IMG/VR virus record: IMGVR_UViG_3300046678_000420
Location: 1-64,000 of that record
From: a virus
Taxonomy: Duplodnaviria; Caudoviricetes
DNA length: 64,000 nt
Reading direction: 5' to 3' (one strand)
Both the position numbers and the translations under genes were made by a program. The notes beneath the pieces were generated by a model. It was not told where the DNA came from. It made no database searches and saw only the letters and a program-made list of their open reading frames with translations. Shown here piece after piece: positions 47 through 47,343 of this stretch; positions within the stretch are counted from its first letter, which is position 1, and each line of letters begins with the position of its first letter.

Positions 47-505
47 ATGCCGGGGCCTCTCCCGAAACCGACCCACCTAAAAATCCTGACCGGTAATCCG
101 GGTAAGAGGCCGTTGCCTGAGAACGAACCCCAGCCGACGCGCGGCGAGCCTGTTCCGCCTGACTGGCTGGACGGGGAAGCGCTGGAGGAGTGGCGGCGCG
201 TCGTGCCGGAGCTGGCGGCGCTCGGCCTGACGGCCCTGGTGGATCGGGCCGCGCTCGTCGTGTACTGCCAGGCGTGGGCTTCCTACGTCTCCGCTTCACG
301 TCAGCTCGCGGAGCAGGGGCCGACATCGACCGGCCGGAACGGCGAGATGGTCAAGCATCCGGCCGCGCAGATCGCGCGGGACTCGGCGGACCTCATGAAC
401 AAATACGGCTCTCAGTTCGGCTTCACGCCCGCGTCGCGGGCCCGCCTGTCCATCGCCGAGCAGGACACGGGCGCCTTGGACATCGCAGCAATCATCTCCG
501 CGTAG
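47..505 (+). CDS. Terminase small subunit, P27 family
   Basis: PGPLPKPT..GNPGKR start, PPDWLD, EEWRR, YCQAW, FGFTPASRARL motifs. Confidence 0.92.
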   Translation: MPGPLPKPTHLKILTGNPGKRPLPENEPQPTRGEPVPPDWLDGEALEEWRRVVPELAALGLTALVDRAALVVYCQAWASYVSASRQLAEQGPTSTGRNGEMVKHPAAQIARDSADLMNKYGSQFGFTPASRARLSIAEQDTGALDIAAIISA

Positions 506-516
506 TTCCGCGGACC

Positions 517-526
517 GCTTTACAGC
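517..526 (+). promoter_or_regulatory. First copy of dispersed GCTTTACAGC-core palindrome (about 40 sites in window)
   Basis: Cores at 517,1072,2181,5290,5841,8335,8932,10603,13766,13889,15434,18640,19208,19950,22319,22872,25002,25765,26974,28562,29987,32306,33773,35308,35801,37682,39141,39198,39645,41386,42860,45383,46326,47379,51032,53528,54126,55812,58975,59098,60661,63440. Confidence 0.8.
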
Positions 527-627
527 TTCCGGCCGGCGCGGGGGTACGGCCGGGGGACAGCGGTTGAGGCCCGGGGTTGAGTGGGGGATTCCCCCGGGTC
601 TCCCGCACACCAACGAGAGGAGGCCCG

Positions 628-1053
628 ATGCCTCGATACGTCGCAACCAAGGTTCCACGCGTTCCGAGGGTGCCGGGCGTCCACCGGGTAGCCCGCGTTC
701 GTCGCGTGCGGCCTCCGGCTCATGTTCACCACCCGCATTCGCCGGGCTCGGTCGTGCATCGGCACCCGCACCAGGGCAACCACAACCCCAGGCCGGGCGC
801 CCACGTTCATCACCATGTCGCTTCCGGTGGTCATCACCCGCACGCGGGCAACCACGGTCACCGGCACATGGCGCCTGGCGGTCATCACCACCACATCGGC
901 GTGCACGAACACCACCATGTCGCTAAGGGCGGGCACCACCACCACAAGGGCGTCCATGAACATCACCACGTGGCGAAGGGTCATCACCACCACCACAAGG
1001 GCTCCCACGGCCACCGGCGCCACCACCACAACCACCGACACCACGGCGTCTAA
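628..1053 (+). CDS. Histidine-rich, Arg-rich basic protein (141 aa), unknown function
   Basis: GGAGG RBS before ATG 628; about one third His; 17-aa repeats; homologue at 45883-46308. Confidence 0.75.
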   Translation: MPRYVATKVPRVPRVPGVHRVARVRRVRPPAHVHHPHSPGSVVHRHPHQGNHNPRPGAHVHHHVASGGHHPHAGNHGHRHMAPGGHHHHIGVHEHHHVAKGGHHHHKGVHEHHHVAKGHHHHHKGSHGHRRHHHNHRHHGV

Positions 1054-1143
1054 GGACTTTGCCGGCGAGGAGCTGTAAAGCGCGCCGCGGTCTCCGTCAC
1101 CCCGGTTTACCGGCTGCCGGAATCACCGAGAGCCGGTTTCCTG

Positions 1144-1250: not shown

Positions 1251-2144
1251 ATGCGCATTCAGCGTACCGCGCCAGCGGTCGGATCGACCATCATCCCGAG
1301 CGAAACCGCCCGTGACCACGGCATTTCGTTCACAGCCCGGGGCATCCTGGCCTACGTCCTGTCGCTCCCGAACGGTTCTCAGGAGACCTTGAAGTCGCTC
1401 ACGGAAGCCTCTTCCGAGGGCCGCGAGCGCGTTTCTCGGGCGCTGAAGGAGCTGGAGACGGCGGGATATCTGAAGCGTCTTCGGGTGCGCGGTGAGGGTG
1501 GCCGAATGACCACTCTGGTTTCCTGGTCCGACGTGCGGGAGAACGCGGCGGAGGAGATAAAGCCGCAGGCCGCACCGGATGCCGGAAACCCGGCTGTCGG
1601 TTCGTCGGCACATAACCCCTTGGGTGGTAAAGATCTAACCCTCCCCACCAACCCCCAGACGGCCGTCACGGTCGAGTCCGCCACGGAAGGGCGGGAGGGT
1701 GGTGAGATCTCTCGATCGGAAAACCTCCTCGCGGCTCTTGGCCGCGATGAGCCAAAGCTGCACCTGGGCGCGAGGGACATCCGCGCGCTGTCGCCTCTCG
1801 TTGACGAGTGGTTCTCCCTTGGCGCCGATGAGCGCCGGGTGACGGCGGTTCTGACTCTGGGCCTGCCGGAGCGGATCAACCACCCTGCCGGGCTCCTGCG
1901 GAAGCGTCTCGTTGAGAAGATGCCGATGCGGCCCCTTGAGGCCCCTGCGGCGCCCCCTGAGGCTCCCCGGCTCCGCTGCCCCGTCTGTGAGCGCATCAAG
2001 GCGCCTCACGCCTCCGCAGGCCTTTGTGAGCACTGCCGGGCTGCGGCTCCGGCTCCGGCTCCGGCGCCAGTCACCAGCGGTTCGCCTTCGTGGCGTGACT
2101 TGGCCCGTGAGTTCGGGATCGGGGCTCTCCCCGTAGCCGCGTAG
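1251..2144 (+). CDS. Winged-HTH protein, replication-initiator-like, with C-terminal Cys zinc ribbon
   Basis: ISFTARGILAYVLSLP..GRERVSRALKELETAGYL pattern; HPAGLLRKRL; CPVC..CEHC. Confidence 0.7.
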   Translation: MRIQRTAPAVGSTIIPSETARDHGISFTARGILAYVLSLPNGSQETLKSLTEASSEGRERVSRALKELETAGYLKRLRVRGEGGRMTTLVSWSDVRENAAEEIKPQAAPDAGNPAVGSSAHNPLGGKDLTLPTNPQTAVTVESATEGREGGEISRSENLLAALGRDEPKLHLGARDIRALSPLVDEWFSLGADERRVTAVLTLGLPERINHPAGLLRKRLVEKMPMRPLEAPAAPPEAPRLRCPVCERIKAPHASAGLCEHCRAAAPAPAPAPVTSGSPSWRDLAREFGIGALPVAA

Positions 2145-2214: not shown

Positions 2215-3867
2215 GTGCAGATGTTCCTTGCCCCGCACGCTCCGGCGAATGCCGCTGAGGGCACGTTCATCTGGGACGCCTCCAAGGCCGATCAGGTCGT
2301 CAACTTCTTTGAGCGGGTCTTGGTCCACACCAAGGGGCGCCACGCGCGGACCCCGTTCCTTCTGACCGACTGGCAGAAGGACGAGATCGTTAGGCCGCTC
2401 TTCGGGACGCTCGCCTATGACGAGCAGTACGACGAGTACGTACGTCAGTACCGCGTTGCGTGGCTGGAGATGGCCCGCAAGAACGGGAAATCCGAACTCG
2501 CGTCCGGCTTCGCCCTGTACGGCCTTGTAGGCGACGGGGAGGAGTCCGCAGAGGTCTACTCCGTCGCGGCTGACCGCGACCAAGCCTCATTGGTGTTCGA
2601 CGTCGCTAAGCGGATGGTCGAGCTTTCCCCGGTCCTTTCCCGGCGTCTTGAGATCGTCGCTTCTAAGAAGCGCATCATCGACCCGGCCACGAACAGCTTT
2701 TACGCAGTGCTGCCCGGAGACGCCTCCGGCGCTCTCGGCACCAACCCGTCAATGGTCCTGTTCGACGAGGTTCTGACGCAGAAAGACCGCCATCTATGGG
2801 ACGCGATGCGTCAGGGTTTCGGTACCCGGCGTCAGCCGATTCTCATTGCCACCACTACCGCCGCGTACACGTCGGCGCGATTCGCATTGGAGGAGCACGA
2901 ATATGGAGAAGGTCTCCTCAAGAATCCTGCCGCCGACCCTGCCCGGTTTGTGTTCATGCGAAACACACCGCGTGATTGGAACTGGCGAGACGAAGGCCAG
3001 CCTGCCAATCCCGACACTGGAGAGCCCGCAACCGGCTGGTACCACGCCAATCCGGCCCTTGGAGATTTCCTCTCCATCGGAAACCTCCGATCCGAAGCCG
3101 TAGAGGCCGAGTCCAAGCCGTCCGCCGAGAACGCGTTCCGCGTTTTCCGACTGAACCAGTGGACTTCTCAAGCTGAGCGCTGGCTCGATATGCAGACGTG
3201 GGACCGCAACGGGGAAACCCCGGTTCTGCGTGAGCACCTGGCGGGCCGTTGCTGCTATGCAGGGCTCGACCTGGCGAGCGTTTCTGACTTCACGGCGTGG
3301 GTTCTGCTCTTCCCGGGCTCGCCGGACGATCCGGACGCCGAGGGATTCACCATTCTGCCGCGTTTCTGGATTCCGTCGAAGGCTCTCAAGGCGCGTGGCG
3401 TGCAGCGCTCGACGCTTGAGTACTGGGCGCAAATGGGCTGGCTCACAATCACTGACGGGGACGTTACTGATTACCGCGTCGTTAGGGCCGAGATCGAGAA
3501 GGACGCCGAAGATTTCTGCATTGATCTCTTCGGCTATGACCCGTGGAACGCGACAAACCTTGTTACGGAGCTGGAAGACGGCGGATTAGAGGGTGTTAAG
3601 GCCCCTCAGACGTCTGCGCGCATGACCGATCCGTGCAAGTGGATGGAAACCCTTCTAGCTGAGGGAGTCCTTAGGCACGGCGGTAATCCCGTGCTCCGCT
3701 GGATGGCGGACAACGTCGAAGTGCAATACACGGGCGACGGCCTTTTCAAGCCGTCTAAGGCCAAGTCTGGCGACAAGATCGACGGGATTTCAGCGCTGCT
3801 GAACGCGCTTTTCGTCGCATTTACCGAGGATGACACAGGAATGGGCTTCATCAGCCTCGACGACTAA
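2215..3867 (+). CDS. terL: Terminase large subunit
   Basis: Walker A-like ARKNGKS, VLFDE Walker B, GLDLAS nuclease, KIDGISA end. Confidence 0.95.
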   Translation: MQMFLAPHAPANAAEGTFIWDASKADQVVNFFERVLVHTKGRHARTPFLLTDWQKDEIVRPLFGTLAYDEQYDEYVRQYRVAWLEMARKNGKSELASGFALYGLVGDGEESAEVYSVAADRDQASLVFDVAKRMVELSPVLSRRLEIVASKKRIIDPATNSFYAVLPGDASGALGTNPSMVLFDEVLTQKDRHLWDAMRQGFGTRRQPILIATTTAAYTSARFALEEHEYGEGLLKNPAADPARFVFMRNTPRDWNWRDEGQPANPDTGEPATGWYHANPALGDFLSIGNLRSEAVEAESKPSAENAFRVFRLNQWTSQAERWLDMQTWDRNGETPVLREHLAGRCCYAGLDLASVSDFTAWVLLFPGSPDDPDAEGFTILPRFWIPSKALKARGVQRSTLEYWAQMGWLTITDGDVTDYRVVRAEIEKDAEDFCIDLFGYDPWNATNLVTELEDGGLEGVKAPQTSARMTDPCKWMETLLAEGVLRHGGNPVLRWMADNVEVQYTGDGLFKPSKAKSGDKIDGISALLNALFVAFTEDDTGMGFISLDD

Positions 3868-20355: not shown

Positions 20356-22428
20356 ATGACGAACGGTACTCGTTTTCGTGACCCTGGCCTCCGTAACGCG
20401 CAACTTCGCGCGGCGGCATACGGGCGGGTTTCTACGGCGGATCAGGTACTCGGGTACGGGGTTGCGGACCAAGATCAATCGTTCGACCAATGGGAGCGCG
20501 AGAACCCCACGGCTACCGTGGTCGGCCGGTTCTACGACCTGGCCGTGAGCGGCGCACTCGAAACCCGCGACGAGATGGAAAAGGTCGAAGAACTCGCCCA
20601 CGCGAAAAAGGTCAACTGCATCGTTGTCCCCAAGGTTGACCGCATCGGCCGGACCGTCCGGGCTTCCCTTCAGTGGGTCTGGCGCATGCAGGACATCGGC
20701 GTTCACTTCATCTCGATTCATGAGCGCATCGACACCAGCGAGCCGTTTGGCATGGAACGCTTCATGCGCTACGTCGAGTTTGCCGAGATGGAGTATCAGC
20801 GCATCCGTGAGCGCACCATGGGCGGCAAGGAGATCAAGGTAGCCCTTGGCGGCTGGCCTGGCGGACCGGCGCCGTATGGCTTCGAAATCGTGGGGAAGGG
20901 GCAGCGGGGATCAACCCTAGGTCCCTGCGCTGCCGAGATCACCGTCTTGGAAGAGGCCGTCTCCCTGCTGGTGGACGAGGGATTCAACTACGGTCAGACC
21001 GCCACGGCGCTGAACTCACTGAGCCTCTTCAACCGGTCCGGCGGCCCGTGGGACGGGGCAAACCTTCATCTGCGACTGCGGCACACCGCGCTTGACGGCT
21101 ACGTGACGTACCGGAAGACCACCGGGTACGGCGCGAACAAGACCAAGGTGTGGGAAGACGGAACGCCGGTTTACGGCGAGTCGATACAGATTCCCGTCCC
21201 GCAGATACTTCCGGGCGAGAGGGTTACGGCACTCAGGGCGGCCATGAAGCGCTTGGAGCCGAAGAACGCCCGCCGCCCGAATGAGGAATACCCGCTGTCG
21301 AAGCGCATCCACGGCTCATGCGGTCACGTGTACGTGGGCAACATGGCGCGGACAAGTTACAACAAGCGTGGATACGTGTGCCAAGGAGGGCTCGCCTTCT
21401 ACGTGAAGAACAAGGAAGAGCGCTGCGATGACGGGCGGCTCGACGCGGACGCTATTGAGCAAGCCGTGTGGGAGCAGGTCGTCAAGCTTCTGGGCGACGA
21501 CAAGCGGCTTCGCGCCCTCGCCCAAGACTGGATAGCTGCGCTGCCCGGGAACCGGGACAAGTATCAGGAACGCGAAGCGTCCCTGATCAAGCAGGTGAAG
21601 AAGCAGAAGGATCTTATTGACCGGCGAGTCGTGGACTACGTCAAGCAGGGGGTAGACGCCAAGATCATGACTGCCGCAACCAAGGCCCTGGAGAAGGAGC
21701 TTGGCGACATGGAGACGCAGCTTGCAGAGGCTCAGCACTGGCTCCAGCAAAACGAGCAGGCCGCCGGGCAGATCGAACGCATCAGCGCCCTAGCGTCTGG
21801 CGCTGCGGGTCGTCTGTTGTCGATGGGACGTGCCGAGCGGGCCGAGATCATCGCCATGTTTGATATCGAGGTCACTCCGCAGGATCATCGGATCTTCGTG
21901 GACAATGGCGGTAACAAAGGCGAAGCCGTGGAGTGGCACTTGGAGACCGGGAGCCTTGTCCCTGATGCGGTCTCCGAGGACGAGTGGTCGAAGGTCGAGA
22001 TGTTCTTGTCCGAGCGAGGCTCTATGCCCAACCTCCGGGGAGGGTCGCACCCGCGTTTGGTCGTGAACGGAATCCTGCTCAAGCTCCGCACGGGCGTTGC
22101 CTGGCGTGATGTCCCCGAGGAGTACGGCAACTGGCGGAAGGTGCAGCGTTGGCAATTCGACTGGATGCAGCGTGGCGTCTGGCCCGAACTGGTGGCGCTT
22201 CTGAACGAGCGGGGAGGCGGTAGCCCGGTCTACCGGGTGCCGCCGCTTCCGCCGCTCGTCATCACCGGGAAGCTGTTCGCGGACCTCATCACGTCCCTGG
22301 ACACCGTGCCGGCGGAGAGCTTTAAAGCGGAGGGCGGAACGGTACACGCTCCGTATGGGAAAACCGGCCTATCCAGTCCAGCTACTTCATATAGTCCGTG
22401 TACCTTTAGCCTCACCTACACCGGCTGA
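20356..22428 (+). CDS. int: Large serine recombinase (integrase) with IS5-transposase-like DUF4096 segment near C-terminus
   Basis: YGRVST catalytic Ser, KVDRIGR, GGPAPYG, zinc ribbon, coiled coil; EWSKVE..VNGILLKLRTGVAWRDVPEEYGNW..W. Confidence 0.9.
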   Translation: MTNGTRFRDPGLRNAQLRAAAYGRVSTADQVLGYGVADQDQSFDQWERENPTATVVGRFYDLAVSGALETRDEMEKVEELAHAKKVNCIVVPKVDRIGRTVRASLQWVWRMQDIGVHFISIHERIDTSEPFGMERFMRYVEFAEMEYQRIRERTMGGKEIKVALGGWPGGPAPYGFEIVGKGQRGSTLGPCAAEITVLEEAVSLLVDEGFNYGQTATALNSLSLFNRSGGPWDGANLHLRLRHTALDGYVTYRKTTGYGANKTKVWEDGTPVYGESIQIPVPQILPGERVTALRAAMKRLEPKNARRPNEEYPLSKRIHGSCGHVYVGNMARTSYNKRGYVCQGGLAFYVKNKEERCDDGRLDADAIEQAVWEQVVKLLGDDKRLRALAQDWIAALPGNRDKYQEREASLIKQVKKQKDLIDRRVVDYVKQGVDAKIMTAATKALEKELGDMETQLAEAQHWLQQNEQAAGQIERISALASGAAGRLLSMGRAERAEIIAMFDIEVTPQDHRIFVDNGGNKGEAVEWHLETGSLVPDAVSEDEWSKVEMFLSERGSMPNLRGGSHPRLVVNGILLKLRTGVAWRDVPEEYGNWRKVQRWQFDWMQRGVWPELVALLNERGGGSPVYRVPPLPPLVITGKLFADLITSLDTVPAESFKAEGGTVHAPYGKTGLSSPATSYSPCTFSLTYTG

Positions 22429-38750: not shown

Positions 38751-39719
38751 TGCCTAACCTCCCGGGGGTGGTGGTGTGCTGGCTCCGCCACCGTATCTCC
38801 CTTGATGCAGATGCGTCAATGGAGTTATGCCACGATTCCCGGCGGGGCCCCAAGGGGGACCCATCGAGTCCGCTTCATGGGTCGCGATTTGCGGACTGAT
38901 TCAGGGTTCAGATTCAGGGCCGTGTTTCCGTGCCCATTCTTGAGGCCGTTCCTGAGTCCATTTTCGGGGCCGTTTTGCGGGCCGCTTTCGGGGCCGCCTT
39001 CTAGCGGAGCCTGGTCCTCGTGGCGCTCCGCGTTGTGGGGCGCGACTTGGCGACCGTGACGCCGTTCCCTTCGAGGCGCCCACCGGCCAACCATCTGCAC
39101 GCCACTAGCGCTGTGTCCTGGGGGTTCAGCTCCGCGGGCTGCTTTACAGCTCCTCGCCGGCCTAGGCGACCGGACTTCGTCGACGAACGCGGCGCCTGCT
39201 TTACAGCTCGCGGCCGGCACGGCTTGCGCGTGCGCCAGCTCGGTTACGTGAAGGTCGTACGCGGTGGATTTTCGAGTCTGCCGACCGGCAGCCGGAGCCC
39301 GTCCGGGGCGGGGCCCGAAAATGACCACGTCGGCCGTGGGTCGCTGGTCGATGACCCTACTTGCAAAAATTTTGTGCTTGGCTGCAACCTCGGCGGGCAC
39401 GCACGAGGGCTACAAACTGCCCCTCGGCCCGGTTGGCGCAGATCCCCACATGTTTGCCCGACAATTCCCGGTGATGTCTCGAGATGTCTGTTTAGAGGCA
39501 TAGGAGTGCCTTTGTAGGGTCGGCGGAAAGCAATTTCGGGCAGTCCTTACACGGCCCTTTTCGGGCCGTCGTTCTACCGCGTCTGACCAGCATTCCACCC
39601 GCGTTCGGCCAGGTCAAACCCTGTTTTCATACCTCCCTTGACACGCTTTACAGCGGTCGTGCATCGTCTTGCCTCGCCAGCAAGACACCGAACATCGGAA
39701 CGACCGAAAGGGAATGCAC

Positions 39720-43358: not shown

Positions 43359-43540
43359 GAGCAATCCCCACCCATGAAACCGCCGATATTGCCGAAGAAT
43401 CCGATCTCGCCCCGGTACTCGAATCCAACACAGTGCGTGGCGTCCGTCTGGACGACCACACCGGCCTGTCCCGGGTTGCTGTACGTCTGGACGTGGCCGC
43501 CGCTCACAGCGGCTATCAGGGCCAACAGCAAGGCAATCAC
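43355..43540 (-). CDS. Small secreted peptide, paralogue 2
   Basis: Signal-like N-terminus; C-terminal GVVVQ..C.G.E..G..GFFGN..GF.GGDCS; start 43540 or 43546. Confidence 0.6.
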   Translation of the reverse strand: MIALLLALIAAVSGGHVQTYSNPGQAGVVVQTDATHCVGFEYRGEIGFFGNIGGFMGGDCS

Positions 43541-43752
43541 GAGCAATCGCCACCCTTGAAACCGAAGGCGTTACCGAAATACCCGACGTGACCGCCAGTC
43601 TCATACCCGATGCACTGACCGTGCCCGAACTGAACGACCACACCTCGATTCATTGACTTGTGCCCGTAGCCGTACGTCATCCAATGCCAGTGATGCACGT
43701 GGTGTGTGACCAGGACGTGCAAGAGAACCGACAGTGCGTGATACCAGGACAT
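43537..43752 (-). CDS. Small His/Trp-rich peptide, paralogue 1
   Basis: GAAGG RBS, ATG 43752; same C-terminal motif. Confidence 0.6.
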   Translation of the reverse strand: MSWYHALSVLLHVLVTHHVHHWHWMTYGYGHKSMNRGVVVQFGHGQCIGYETGGHVGYFGNAFGFKGGDCS

Positions 43753-44399
43753 GCGCTTGTGCCTTCCATGTGTCGTGTCAGCCGCTCCGTGGGCTCGGTG
43801 CGGCCGGTCTTGCTGGCAAGGCACATGTCTAGGCCCCAGGTCACCAGTGCGTCAAGTGAGGTACGGGTCACTGCGAATGAGGCGCACATCACATTCACCA
43901 GGTAGACCAATCAGCCATCCAGTCGAGGCCGGCTTGGACTAAGCAGCTGGTCATACGGGCCATATGGGCCCGGGGGGTCACTAGACCACACCCATACACC
44001 CATCGCCCGGAGCCGACCAGGGCGACGGCCGGACAACAGCCAAGCCGCCATGTCATAGTCTGTCCGACTTTGGCTAATCCAAGATGCCCGGATTCAATCA
44101 ATGATAGCCGCTGGATTGAAGACACTACCCATATGGGGGTGTCATAAGTCTAATGTCCGTTTTGCACAAGACCCGCGCAGGCTTATTTTTTTCGCCGCAA
44201 GTTAGATCGACTTTGGTGATGGAGACGCCAAAAGGCCCTCCCGGGACTGGAGGGCCACTTTCGATGACCATCCGGCCCTGGGAGGGCCGTGGTTCGAGGA
44301 TTGCACGGCTTGGGGCCGTGCGTCAAGCGAGTTAGATCCCCTGGTCAGGCATGCGTGATGCAGATCACACGGCCTAGTGTCCTCTCTTCGACGAGACGA

Positions 44400-44628: not shown

Positions 44629-44907
44629 ATGCCACGGTCGATGTGCCGCCGCTGTCGGCGGCTAGTCCCGTTAGGGCAACCCTTCTGCTGGGAACACAGG
44701 GCAGCCGATCGTTACTCGGCTGCATGGAACTTAAACAGTAAGGCCGCTAGAGCGGCTAACCCTTTCTGCGTCAAGTGTGGATCGGTATTCGATCTCACGG
44801 CTGATCACATCATTCCGCGTTCACGCGGCGGGACTGACCACATGTCGAACATTCAGGTTCTCTGCCGTTCGTGCAACAGCCGGAAGCACAACCGCCCGAG
44901 GGGGTGA
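44629..44907 (+). CDS. HNH endonuclease (packaging-associated)
   Basis: CVKC..DHIIPRSRGGTD..N.QVLCRSCN. Confidence 0.93.
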   Translation: MPRSMCRRCRRLVPLGQPFCWEHRAADRYSAAWNLNSKAARAANPFCVKCGSVFDLTADHIIPRSRGGTDHMSNIQVLCRSCNSRKHNRPRG

Positions 44908-44913
44908 CATCTC

Positions 44914-45372
44914 ATGCCGGGGCCTCTCCCGAAACCGACCCACCTAAAAATCCTGACCGGTAATCCGGGTAAGAGGCCGCTGCCTGAGCACGAACCCCAG
45001 CCCACCAGGGGCGAACCGATTCCGCCTGACTGGCTGGACGGGGAAGCCCTGGAGGAATGGCGGCGCGTCGTCCCGGAGCTGGCGGCGCTGGGCCTGACTG
45101 CCTTGGTGGACCGGGCCGCGCTGGTCGTGTACTGCCAGGCATGGGCTTCTTACGTCTCCGCTTCACGTCAGCTCGCGGAGCAGGGGCCGACTTCGACCGG
45201 ACGCAACGGCGAGATGGTCAAGCATCCGGCCGCGCAGATCGCGCGGGACTCGGCGGACCTGATGAACAAGTTCGGGAGTCAGTTCGGCTTCACGCCCGCT
45301 TCGCGGGCTCGCCTGTCCATTCCCGAGCAGGACTCGGGGGCCTTGGACATCGCAGCAATCATCTCCGCGTAG
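44914..45372 (+). CDS. Terminase small subunit, P27 family (B)
   Basis: Near-identical protein to 47-505. Confidence 0.92.
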   Translation: MPGPLPKPTHLKILTGNPGKRPLPEHEPQPTRGEPIPPDWLDGEALEEWRRVVPELAALGLTALVDRAALVVYCQAWASYVSASRQLAEQGPTSTGRNGEMVKHPAAQIARDSADLMNKFGSQFGFTPASRARLSIPEQDSGALDIAAIISA

Positions 45373-45466
45373 CCCGCGGAGCGCTTTACAGCTTCCGGCC
45401 GGCGCGGGGGTACGGCCGGGGGACGGTGGTTGAGGCCGGGGGTTGAGTCTTGCTCCCCCCGGTCTC

Positions 45467-45811
45467 CTACTTCCCGATGAAGAGGGCGAGCATCGCGGCG
45501 ATGCCCGAGAGGAGTCCGCCAATTGCGCTTACGGCTGTCCACGAAATCTGGCGGGGCGGACGCACGAGCCTGGGTTCTCGTGGGGCGGGTGCACCGTGCC
45601 TGATCGGTTCGGAGCGGGAGGTCTGTTGAGCCGTTCGCACCGCAGCTCTATCGGGGCCGCGCCCGCGCCTCTGTCGCGCGCGCTTCCGCCTGTCCTTCCG
45701 GTCGCCCAGTTCAATGACCAACCAAAGAATGAACCAGACCACGCCCGTGCCCCAGATCGGCGAGGTCACCAAAGCGATCCCAGCGGCGTCGTTGATTGCG
45801 GACCCCCTCAT
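45467..45811 (-). CDS. Inserted 2-TM membrane protein (B-specific)
   Basis: Region absent from copy A; TM-basic linker-TM. Confidence 0.5.
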   Translation of the reverse strand: MRGSAINDAAGIALVTSPIWGTGVVWFILWLVIELGDRKDRRKRARQRRGRGPDRAAVRTAQQTSRSEPIRHGAPAPREPRLVRPPRQISWTAVSAIGGLLSGIAAMLALFIGK

Positions 45812-45882
45812 CGGCAGCTGAGCAATAGGCGGATCGTAGCAAAGCTCTGTGATCGAATTTGCCTGGTTGGAGGTGACAAGAG

Positions 45883-46308
45883 ATGCCTCGGTACGTCGCA
45901 ACGAAGGTTCCCCGTGTTCCGCGAGTCCCCGGCGTTCACCGGGTGGCGCGGGTTCGCCGCGTGCGGCCTCCGTCCCATGTTCACTACCCGCATTCGCCGG
46001 GGTCGGTGGTGCATCGGCATCCGCATCAGGGCAACCACAACCCGCGCCCCGGGGCGCATGTTCACCACCATGCCGCCAGCGGCGGCCACCACGCGCACGC
46101 GGGCAACCACGGTCACCGGCACGTCGCATCGGGCGGGCATCACCCGCACAAGGGTGTGCACGAGCATCACCACGTTGTGGCTGGCCGCCATCACCCGCAT
46201 AAGGGTGTTCACGAGCACCACCACGTCCCGAAGGGGCGACACCACCACCACAAGGGGAGCCACGGCCATCGGAGACACCATCACGCGCACCGGCACCACG
46301 GCGTGTAG
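45883..46308 (+). CDS. Histidine-rich protein (B)
   Basis: Homologue of 628-1053, same length. Confidence 0.75.
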   Translation: MPRYVATKVPRVPRVPGVHRVARVRRVRPPSHVHYPHSPGSVVHRHPHQGNHNPRPGAHVHHHAASGGHHAHAGNHGHRHVASGGHHPHKGVHEHHHVVAGRHHPHKGVHEHHHVPKGRHHHHKGSHGHRRHHHAHRHHGV

Positions 46309-46458
46309 AGCCGCGCCGGCCGGACGCTGTAAAGCTCGCGTCTGTACCTTGCTTGACGCATGACGCGTCAAGGGAGTTAGATCATGCCTCAAGACACGGA
46401 AGACCCCGGCGGGTGCTGGACACACCCCCGGGGCTTGGCTTGAGGAGCTGCACTCCAC

Positions 46459-47343
46459 ATGCGCATTCAGCGTACCCCGCAACAAGGTTTCTTCACCATC
46501 GTTCCGAACGCGACGGCGCGTGATCACGGCCTGTCGTTCACGGCCCGGGGCATCCTGGCCTACCTGCTGTCGCTCCCGGCTGGCCGCTCTGAGACGGTCA
46601 TGAGCCTGTCTGAGAAGTCGGTGGAGGGTCGCAAGGCCGTTTCGGCTGCGATGACGGAGCTTGAGGAGCGCGGTTACCTGGCTCGCAAGCGGGTTCGCGG
46701 TGAGGCGGGGCAGATCACCACTGACGTTGTGGTCTTCGACATGCGCGACGGCGCATCTCCCCAGGTCGCGCCGAACGACACTCCAGTGTCGGTCGGTGGC
46801 CCGGTCGCCGGTTCGTCGGTCGATAACCCCATAGAAGACTTGGTAGAAAACTCCCCCCTCCCTACCCCCGTGACGGCCCCGGCTCTGACCGAGTCGGCCC
46901 CGGAGGGGCGGGCGGGGGGTGAGATATCTCGATCGGAAACCCTTCTCGCCGAGGTCGGCCGGGCTGACGCACGGCTACACCTGTCGGTGCGGGATCTGCG
47001 CAAGCTGGCCCCGCTGGTCGAGGCGTGGTTCGAGCGGGGCGCGGACGAGCGCTTGGTGAAGCTGGCGCTTACGGCGGGCCTTCCGGAGCGGGTGCAGCAC
47101 CCCGCCGGGCTGCTGCGGAAGCGCCTCGAAGACAAAATGCCCGCAACGGCTCCCGTGGCCCCTGTGGCGGCCCCGCAGGCTCCCCGGCATGAGTGCCCCG
47201 AGTGCCAGCGTCCTGTGATCACTGCGGGCCTGTGCAAGTCATGCGCCGGGGACGCCCCGGCAACGGCCACCCCCATTTCGGGCCCGGTCTCCTGGCGAGA
47301 CCTGGCTAAGAGCTTCGCCCCGGGCGCCTTCGCTACGGCCTGA
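46459..47343 (+). CDS. Winged-HTH initiator-like protein (B)
   Basis: Diverged homologue of 1251-2144. Confidence 0.7.
   Translation: MRIQRTPQQGFFTIVPNATARDHGLSFTARGILAYLLSLPAGRSETVMSLSEKSVEGRKAVSAAMTELEERGYLARKRVRGEAGQITTDVVVFDMRDGASPQVAPNDTPVSVGGPVAGSSVDNPIEDLVENSPLPTPVTAPALTESAPEGRAGGEISRSETLLAEVGRADARLHLSVRDLRKLAPLVEAWFERGADERLVKLALTAGLPERVQHPAGLLRKRLEDKMPATAPVAPVAAPQAPRHECPECQRPVITAGLCKSCAGDAPATATPISGPVSWRDLAKSFAPGAFATA

Follow-up and report, generated by a model that had tools for sequence, protein, structure and literature searches.

Proteins with an extreme histidine content are, to our knowledge, rare, and those characterised in bacteria serve in the handling of nickel or zinc. Among them the bacterial His-rich protein Hpn sequesters and transfers nickel and protects against overload (PMC4671568); among DNA-condensing polycations, the P2 protamines bind zinc 1:1 via conserved Cys and His (PMC7126135). 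Here we describe a gene for a histidine-rich, polycationic protein located in a phage packaging module, in the first 64 kb (the window, that is, the whole stretch of DNA that was analysed) of the 89,947-bp IMG/VR virus record IMGVR_UViG_3300046678_000420. The record consists of two related units, A and B, each of which carries one copy of the gene, and we tentatively read its product as a metal-modulated accessory of DNA packaging. His-rich, polycationic disordered proteins as such are known; what is new is the setting in a phage packaging module.

Composition and repeats of the histidine-rich protein

A first-pass annotation of the window had described an open reading frame (ORF) of 141 aa with about 48 His and few acidic or aromatic residues. 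The count was exact, since the product of copy A contains 48 His (34%), together with 18 Val, 18 Gly, 14 Arg, 13 Pro and 5 Lys, and its only acidic and aromatic residues other than His are 2 Glu and 1 Tyr; Cys, Asp, Phe, Leu and Trp do not occur at all. From the sequence we calculate a net charge of about +21 at pH 7, rising to +53 at pH 5.5. By comparison, the mean His content of the other unit-A genes of at least 100 aa is 1.8%, and 19% of all the His codons in unit-A genes of this size sit in copy A alone. The CAC/CAT ratio of copy A equals that of the remaining genes (0.23 and 0.24, respectively), and for this reason the gene looks native to the phage.

The histidines recur periodically, with autocorrelation at lag 17 (z = 5.1) and at lag 34 (z = 3.5), and the 17-aa units of copy A follow the consensus GGHHxHxGVHEHHHVxx. 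The periodicity proposed in the first-pass annotation therefore stands, but the number of units had to be revised from four to five, all in register (residues 50-134). Two or three HExxH-like HEHHH motifs are present in the protein. In a chance survey of 6,595 mechanically called ORFs from 817 kb, covering the viral record and 99 related loci, the combination of this length with more than 25% His was found in family members only, and the ORF is far beyond chance.

The protein is predicted to be intrinsically disordered and to have no fold. AlphaFold2 gave no secondary structure for the long form, to which both copies belong, when run with the family alignment (mean predicted local distance difference test score (pLDDT) 44.6, predicted template modelling score (pTM) 0.11), and none for a short form (mean pLDDT 63.5, pTM 0.13).

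Searches for relatives of known function were empty. No match to the protein was obtained in Pfam, PHROGs or NCBIfam even at permissive E-values, with a profile against PDB sequences at E up to 10, or by a word search of a 5.8-billion-cluster database with the single protein; the ESM Atlas gave no usable match, a profile hidden Markov model gave 0 matches among 1.84 billion representatives, and scans of genome contigs with the family patterns and of metagenome contigs with the long-form patterns found nothing. A tblastn search of 50,697 phage records was also negative, which is a weak negative as the low-complexity filter was on. The sole match of a second metagenome scan (L180) was rejected as chance, since it lies within a 469-residue open frame in 71%-GC DNA with no start codon or Shine-Dalgarno (SD) sequence near the match and no phage neighbours. 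In the full-text literature we found no description of a His-rich protein in a phage packaging module, nor of a protamine-like protein in a tailed phage. These empty libraries and literature searches agree with the earlier remark that characterised phage proteins of this kind are not known, and the gene is judged to be a genuine orphan family.

Purifying selection in the His frame

Copy B keeps the length and the His register of copy A, as had been claimed, with its 44 His in register. Most of the nucleotide differences between the two copies (60 of 84, 71%) fall at codon position 3 of the His frame, and the ratio of nonsynonymous to synonymous substitution rates (dN/dS, omega), a check suggested in the first-pass annotation, is 0.086 by the Nei-Gojobori method (dS 1.03, dN 0.089). 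Across all 36 pairs of nine long-form sequences omega lies between 0.06 and 0.21, at dS values of 0.3-2.3, and the short forms, with omega of 0.13-0.33, are likewise under purifying selection. The nine long forms share 37 invariant His columns, 25 of which contain both CAC and CAT; with this synonymous turnover at invariant columns, it is the His identity itself that is conserved.

Every homologue has an SD sequence together with an ATG or GTG start, and the exact copy A allele, free of indels, is present in contigs from four rhizosphere runs, which match positions 529-2198, 560-1632 and 529-1793 with zero differences. Taken with the dN/dS of about 0.1 and the synonymous His turnover, the conserved SD and start and the intact allele argue, as the first-pass annotation had, for a real protein under strong purifying selection.

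An antisense Val-rich frame is also open, over 520-1044 in A and 45808-46527 in B, and has the higher GC content at third codon positions (GC3). It stays free of stops only because none can arise when CAY, GGN and CGN codons are read as their reverse complements. We rejected this Val/Thr-rich frame as the selected one, since its omega is 1.9 as against 0.086 in the His frame. The remaining alternative frames have omega values of 2.0-5.7, apart from a single frame at 0.22 that is closed by stop codons.

A constant basic core and a variable histidine array

There are at least 16 distinct homologues, all of them in one phage clade; those that pattern scans of IMG/VR brought up were confined to phages with a TerL 86-93% identical to that of the window. 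The homologues comprise long forms of 141-149 aa with 31-35% His (A, B, L003, L004/L005, L006, L007, L008, L009 and L010), one intermediate form of 125 aa with 27% His (L106) and short forms of 79-103 aa with 15-21% His (L113/L116/L120, L114, L115, L181-L183, P0002 and P0003). P0002 and P0003 come from the 5.8-billion-cluster database, and the wider profile A3 recovered three short forms.

The short forms keep the N-terminal motif M-A-R-x-V-x-T-R-V-x-R-[IV]-P-R-V and the Lys/Pro-rich stretch that follows it, as well as a central P-R-x-G-A-H-V-H-H-H block and a basic, His-rich C-terminus (alignments A3 and A4); they do not have the 17-aa repeats. T7, R11, R14, V15 and V24 are the same in all long and short forms (alignment A3). 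The signature of the family, [RK]-x-V-x-T-[RKH]-x-x-R-[VI]-x-R-V plus P-R-x-G-A-H-V-H-H-H in a gene directly after terS, was found throughout (A1, A3, A4). All forms have 16-23 Arg plus Lys, 0-3 acidic residues and a net charge of +17 to +24 at pH 7, while the number of His ranges from 12 to 52. Since the charge is constant across the forms and the His content is not, the alignments indicate that the polycationic, proline-rich core is ancestral and that the His array is a recent, lineage-specific tandem expansion.

In the sister phage L118 (TerL 73% identical) and in outgroups (43-47%) the slot holds other genes or nothing. Within the clade, phages with a TerS 89-95% identical to that of the window carry long forms, and those with a TerS of 49-61% mostly intermediate or short ones, the exception being L010, a long form with a TerS of 57%. 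As the form of the gene tracks the terS type while TerL is uniformly conserved, the left-end block is mosaic.

The packaging region and its variable slot

The gene had been placed between the terminase subunits, and indeed terS lies upstream and terL downstream (Table 1). At every homologue locus the gene order is fixed as HNH-TerS-X-(optional tail-fibre-like gene)-HTH-TerL, where X is the His-rich gene and HTH a helix-turn-helix gene, and wherever a locus includes the slot, the His-rich gene comes after terS and shares its strand. Within the block the HTH gene has diverged furthest, its products being 42-57% identical to that of unit A among clade members. Its distant homologues were set aside as unrelated replication genes that are not syntenic.

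Table 1 Coordinates of the features discussed in the text (window positions unless a locus is named)
Feature	Position	Strand	Remarks
Small terminase subunit (Terminase_4 / phrog_83), unit A	47..505	+	Directly upstream of the His-rich gene
30-bp motif copy, CCGCGG-N-GCTTTACAGC-N-GCCGGC	508..537	.	Just after the terS stop
Two hairpins after terS	526-556, 560-606 (45392-45470 in unit B)	+	32 pairs
Shine-Dalgarno sequence GAGAGGAGG	615..623	+	4 nt before the ATG of copy A
His-rich polycationic protein gene, copy A	628..1053	+	Open frame, 141 codons
N-terminal Arg/Val/Pro-rich basic segment, residues 1-30	628..717	+	Common to long and short forms (alignment A3)
Five in-register 17-aa His-rich units, residues 50-134	775..1029	+	51-nt DNA period
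30-bp motif, inverted copy	1061..1090	.	Just after the His-gene stop
34-bp palindrome containing TTGACGC-N5-GCGTCAA	1144..1177 (46350-46385 in unit B)	.	Always precedes the HTH gene
wHTH (HTH_36 / replication-initiator-like) with C-terminal Cys4 ribbon	1251..2144	+	Constant downstream neighbour
Large terminase subunit, TerL ATPase and nuclease domains	2215..3867	+	
HNH endonuclease, unit B	44629..44907	+	6 nt upstream of terS; packaging-associated HNH
Small terminase subunit, unit B	44914..45372	+	
His-rich protein gene, copy B	45883..46308	+	141 aa, 44 His, 89% identical to A
Tail-fibre-like gene	L003:1571-3118, L006:4493-5806, L009:4496-5809, L010:1051-3165, L106:1724-2776		
Insertions between terS and the His-rich gene	45404-45882; L008:3650-3994; L006:3619-3860		No convincing ORF seen

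In six relatives a variable tail-fibre-like gene (phrog_14726) stands between the His-rich and HTH genes, with collagen-like G-X-Y runs in L106 and L010; the position of a fibre gene between terS and terL is unusual. In unit B, L008 and L006 several hundred nt of unrelated extra DNA separate terS from the His-rich gene. Judged from these loci, the gap between terS and terL is an insertion hot spot, a variable slot for cargo.

Summed contig depth in the four rhizosphere runs is several-fold higher over 1-560 (terS) than over 561-2200 (the His-rich and HTH genes), and several variant contigs fall on terS. Contig depth cannot rank genes, so that the pattern is a hint at most; it would fit a terS common to many co-occurring variants and a more divergent downstream block.

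Motifs, hairpins and regulatory surroundings

The first-pass annotation had noted that both copies are bracketed by 30-bp palindromic sites. Such sites are real in both units, with cores at 45383 and 46326 in unit B, where the upstream copy lies about 490 nt before the start codon, but a special meaning for this gene is not supported, since the motif is dispersed genome-wide. It is a quasi-palindrome of about 30 bp with the form CCGCGG-N-GCT[T/G]TA[C/A]AGC-N-GCCGGC. Its core GCTKTAMAGC occurs 35 times in the window (517-63449; for example at 517, 1072, 2181, 5290, 39645 and 41386), as against 0.08 expected, and a hand count allowing one mismatch gave about 32 sites in unit A. Several copies stand immediately past a stop codon, as is the case for terS, the His-rich gene and the HTH gene. 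The cores at 39645 and 41386 follow a TTGAC box and resemble an operator within a promoter; the motif appears to be oriented + for the most part in the rightward arm and - near 29.9-37.7 kb, a pattern that resembles a stoperator network.

About 120 nt past the terS stop are highly conserved and contain one motif copy and two hairpins. The second hairpin, of about 20 bp, shows compensatory changes at two pairs, one of which occurs as A-U, C-G and G-C; there is no U-tract. Since the insertions of unit B and L008 fall after the hairpins, this element belongs to the 3' end of terS. It may act as a terminator or attenuator that has no U-tract, or else as a DNA or RNA element connected with packaging. 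Rfam gave no credible match on the leader; a match to ar14 was rejected because it lies on the wrong strand and, at 26 bits, stays below the gathering score of 58.8.

Immediately ahead of the HTH gene every locus carries a conserved module made of a motif copy, the palindrome TTGACGC-N5-GCGTCAA and a GC hairpin, which is kept with or without an intervening fibre-like gene, and this suggests that the HTH gene starts under an operator of its own within the packaging region. The module lies only at this point and marks a boundary past the His-rich gene. For the His-rich gene the simplest reading is that it would be expressed by read-through of the late or packaging transcript. A promoter consensus scan of positions 1-2400, which covers actinobacterial promoters poorly, found none.

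The viral record and its source

The record is flagged as having direct terminal repeats, and its terminal repeat is exact and 38 nt long. Self-comparison resolved it into two collinear units, 1-44867 and 44868-89947, which are 86-92% identical, and found no host DNA, so that the description of the units as prophages in the first-pass annotation is not supported: by this comparison the record is two phage genomes joined head to tail. Related contigs measure 44.4 and 46.5 kb. The dimer may be a true tandem, or an assembly join or chimera of two co-occurring variants; an assembly join is conceivable because about 200 nt spanning the A-to-B junction, from the 3' end of the HNH gene to the 5' end of terS, are nearly identical in both units.

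Pfam matches in the record include a portal, an HK97-fold capsid, a CHAP/LysM/PG_binding endolysin, a large serine recombinase, Lsr2, an HNH endonuclease, a Terminase_4 small subunit and TerL, and the GC content is 63%. This gene content indicates a temperate HK97-like siphovirus of an actinobacterium, the temperate lifestyle being deduced from the serine integrase and the host from Lsr2 and the GC content. A TerL search of species genomes was uninformative about the host, its best matches lying in Firmicutes prophages, at 36-42% identity across most of the protein. The runs in which the phage occurs are rhizosphere metagenomes of 2023, possibly all from a single campaign. The search for tRNA genes was negative.

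Two further ORFs deserve mention. The serine recombinase ORF (20356-22428) has a C-terminal match to DUF4096, the N-terminal domain of IS4/IS5 transposases, at residues 539-612, which may reflect a fusion or read-through into an insertion sequence (IS) remnant. A small conserved ORF (43537-43824, - strand; L009:2066-2293, - strand) encodes the His/Trp-rich segment HHVHHWHW and a Gly-rich C-terminus with two Cys, and is a second His-enriched micro-protein unrelated to the His-rich gene.

A packaging accessory as the favoured reading

Two properties of the protein follow almost inevitably from its composition: it should bind polyanions, given a net charge of about +20 and almost no acidic residues, and it should bind transition metals, given dozens of conserved His and the HEHHH motifs. 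The best reading of its function, put forward tentatively and with less than even confidence, is that of a protamine-P2-like, metal-modulated, DNA-binding packaging accessory. The protein would be made together with the packaging genes, and its basic half would bind a polyanion, most likely the phage DNA at or near the terminase-portal step, which it would neutralise, bend or condense, a few copies perhaps being packaged. The His array would coordinate transition-metal ions (Zn2+ or Ni2+), and this coordination would cross-link or compact the protein-DNA complex, as happens with zinc in the Arg/His-rich protamine P2.

We favour a packaging accessory because the invariant part of the family is the polycation and not the His array, because the gene keeps its place next to terS and would be transcribed along with the packaging genes, and because protamine P2 offers the precedent of an Arg/His polycation that uses zinc in DNA condensation. 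The protein has the features expected of protamine-like proteins, namely high net charge, disorder and 0-3 Asp plus Glu. The short forms, which retain the charge without the His array, also favour a polycationic, nucleic-acid-binding core over a pure metal sink.

Several points weigh against a packaging accessory. The slot also holds unrelated cargo, the tail-fibre-like gene, which makes a position in the packaging module weak evidence of function. Once a genome of 45 kb fills an HK97-type capsid, there is probably not much space for internal protein in bulk, and we know of no protamine-like condensers in tailed phages. Arg and Lys would suffice for DNA binding alone, and the close conservation of single His residues could mean a purely metal-centred role. 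Moreover the gene is dispensable for a packaging machine of this kind, since the sister phage and the outgroups do without it. The first-pass annotation had proposed a protamine-like condenser, a metal sink or a condensate former, and had considered a pH switch as well as a metal switch; a pH switch seems unlikely for a cytoplasmic protein.

Alternative functions

The main rival, in our view unlikely, is a cytoplasmic metal buffer or metallochaperone that would supply Zn2+ or Ni2+ to phage proteins in the late burst, its clients being the packaging HNH endonuclease, the Cys4-ribbon HTH protein and the zinc-ribbon integrase, or that would alternatively withhold metal from host enzymes. The 34% His, the invariant register and the HEHHH motifs fit such a role, as do the Hpn precedent and the position of the gene two genes downstream of the HNH gene, the packaging HNH protein gp74 of HK97 preferring Ni++ as cofactor and carrying a Zn site (PMC3592412). 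As an ancestral role, however, it is difficult to reconcile with short forms that have 12-22 His and no repeats and yet keep the basic half, for which a metal chaperone has no obvious use. The metallochaperones known to us are not polycations of net +20. In addition, L118 has an HNH homologue and TerS without the gene, and outgroups with TerS and TerL likewise do without it.

Rather unlikely is a stronger version of the packaging accessory, in which a metal-switchable polycation would neutralise or condense the genome during packaging, be co-packaged with the DNA and be released or loosened by a change of metal or pH at infection, the array having recently expanded by tandem duplication as a tuner of this switch.

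We consider it improbable that the protein is associated with the virion surface or a fibre, as a cationic adhesin that would stick to soil particles or to anionic polymers of the cell wall, or as a metal-stabilised needle resembling the HxH iron sites of T4 gp37. Where the tail-fibre-like gene is present, in six loci, it starts 12-51 nt past the stop of the His-rich gene, which suggests co-transcription, and copy A contains 24 overlapping HxH motifs, a pattern whose His pairs coordinate iron in phage fibres and spikes (PMC11705849). Against this, no homologue of the fibre-like gene was found in the window record, that is, in either of its units, and it is missing from all short-form loci; His residues are only weakly enriched at i/i+2 spacing (z = 1.8), and the models predict no fold. 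The fibre proteins themselves have zero HxH motifs and are mildly acidic, and with a charge of merely -3 to -6 the fibre was rejected as a charge-matched partner of the His-rich protein.

Little credence can be given, too, to an RNA-binding regulator akin to lambda N or HK022 Nun, in which an arginine-rich motif with a His/Zn tail would act on the hairpins or the 30-bp motif, or to its alternative form, a ribosome-binding Pro/Arg-rich factor. The protein is small and disordered with an Arg-rich N-terminal segment, covarying conserved hairpins lie just upstream and the motif follows many stop codons. The hairpins, however, stay with terS and not with the His-rich gene where DNA has been inserted, no sequence similarity to an N/Nun-type family was found in Pfam, PHROGs or NCBIfam, and the gene lies in the late, structural arm between terS and terL. 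N-type regulators are early genes.

Only a small chance is left to a lysogenic-conversion moron that would make the host tolerant of Ni, Zn, Cu or Co in the rhizosphere. The phage is temperate, the gap between terS and terL is a variable cargo slot and His-rich proteins do protect against nickel overload (PMC4671568), but the consensus scan showed no promoter-like site before the gene, the upstream hairpin and the SD are less than 25 nt apart, the gene shares the strand of the late genes and is enclosed by the two terminase genes, and the short forms would be poor metal sinks. Last, the idea that there is no protein and that the conservation comes from the opposite-strand Val-rich ORF or from a DNA-level repeat, such as a packaging site, has next to no chance: the open antisense frame and its higher GC3 speak for it, and the substitution pattern, in the excess of differences at His-frame position 3 and in the omega of every other open frame, already refutes it.

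Significance

The natural series of short, intermediate and long versions within one clade offers a way of asking what the His array adds to a disordered polycation. If metal-dependent DNA binding is true, the protein would represent protein-assisted charge neutralisation in the packaging of a tailed phage, and if the protein is a metal chaperone, it would mean that phages manage trace metals for their packaging nucleases. A co-packaged, metal-switchable polycation would be the first histone- or protamine-type packaging protein described in a siphovirus. The protein is moreover compact and easily synthesised, and might serve for DNA compaction that responds to metal or as a natural affinity tag.

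Comparison with known systems

Like Hpn and Hpn-2 of Helicobacter pylori, the phage protein is small, very His-rich and of low complexity, with metal binding expected from composition (PMC4671568). It differs from them in its net charge of +20, its Arg/Pro/Val-rich half, the lack of Cys, its setting in a packaging module and its His-poor short relatives, and no sequence relationship was found in Pfam, NCBIfam, PHROG, PDB sequences or the 1.84 billion representatives. With the T4 gp37 tip and the P2 gpV apex it shares repeated His-x-His, and a fibre-like gene adjoins it in some relatives (PMC11705849); the HxH sites of gp37 and gpV, however, lie inside folded trimeric beta-structures of large fibre proteins, and for the phage protein no secondary structure is predicted and no fibre or spike family was matched.

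Lambda N and HK022 Nun are likewise small and disordered, with a basic N-terminal motif and structured hairpins nearby, but they differ in that the His-rich gene is placed in a late operon, has no similarity to them and is accompanied by hairpins tied to terS. Adenovirus pVII and baculovirus P6.9 are virus-encoded protamine-like polycations that accompany genome encapsidation (PMC10548178, PMC5899202). They belong to eukaryotic viruses with other capsid architectures and are Arg-rich rather than His-rich.

In composition the C-terminal HRRHHHxHRRH-type tail of the His-rich protein resembles protamine P2, by our own reading. The two proteins are not homologous, P2 having Cys and disulfides where the phage protein has none, and the His fraction of the latter is far higher; both, however, are disordered Arg-rich polycations with conserved His, and zinc aids DNA compaction by P2 (PMC7126135).

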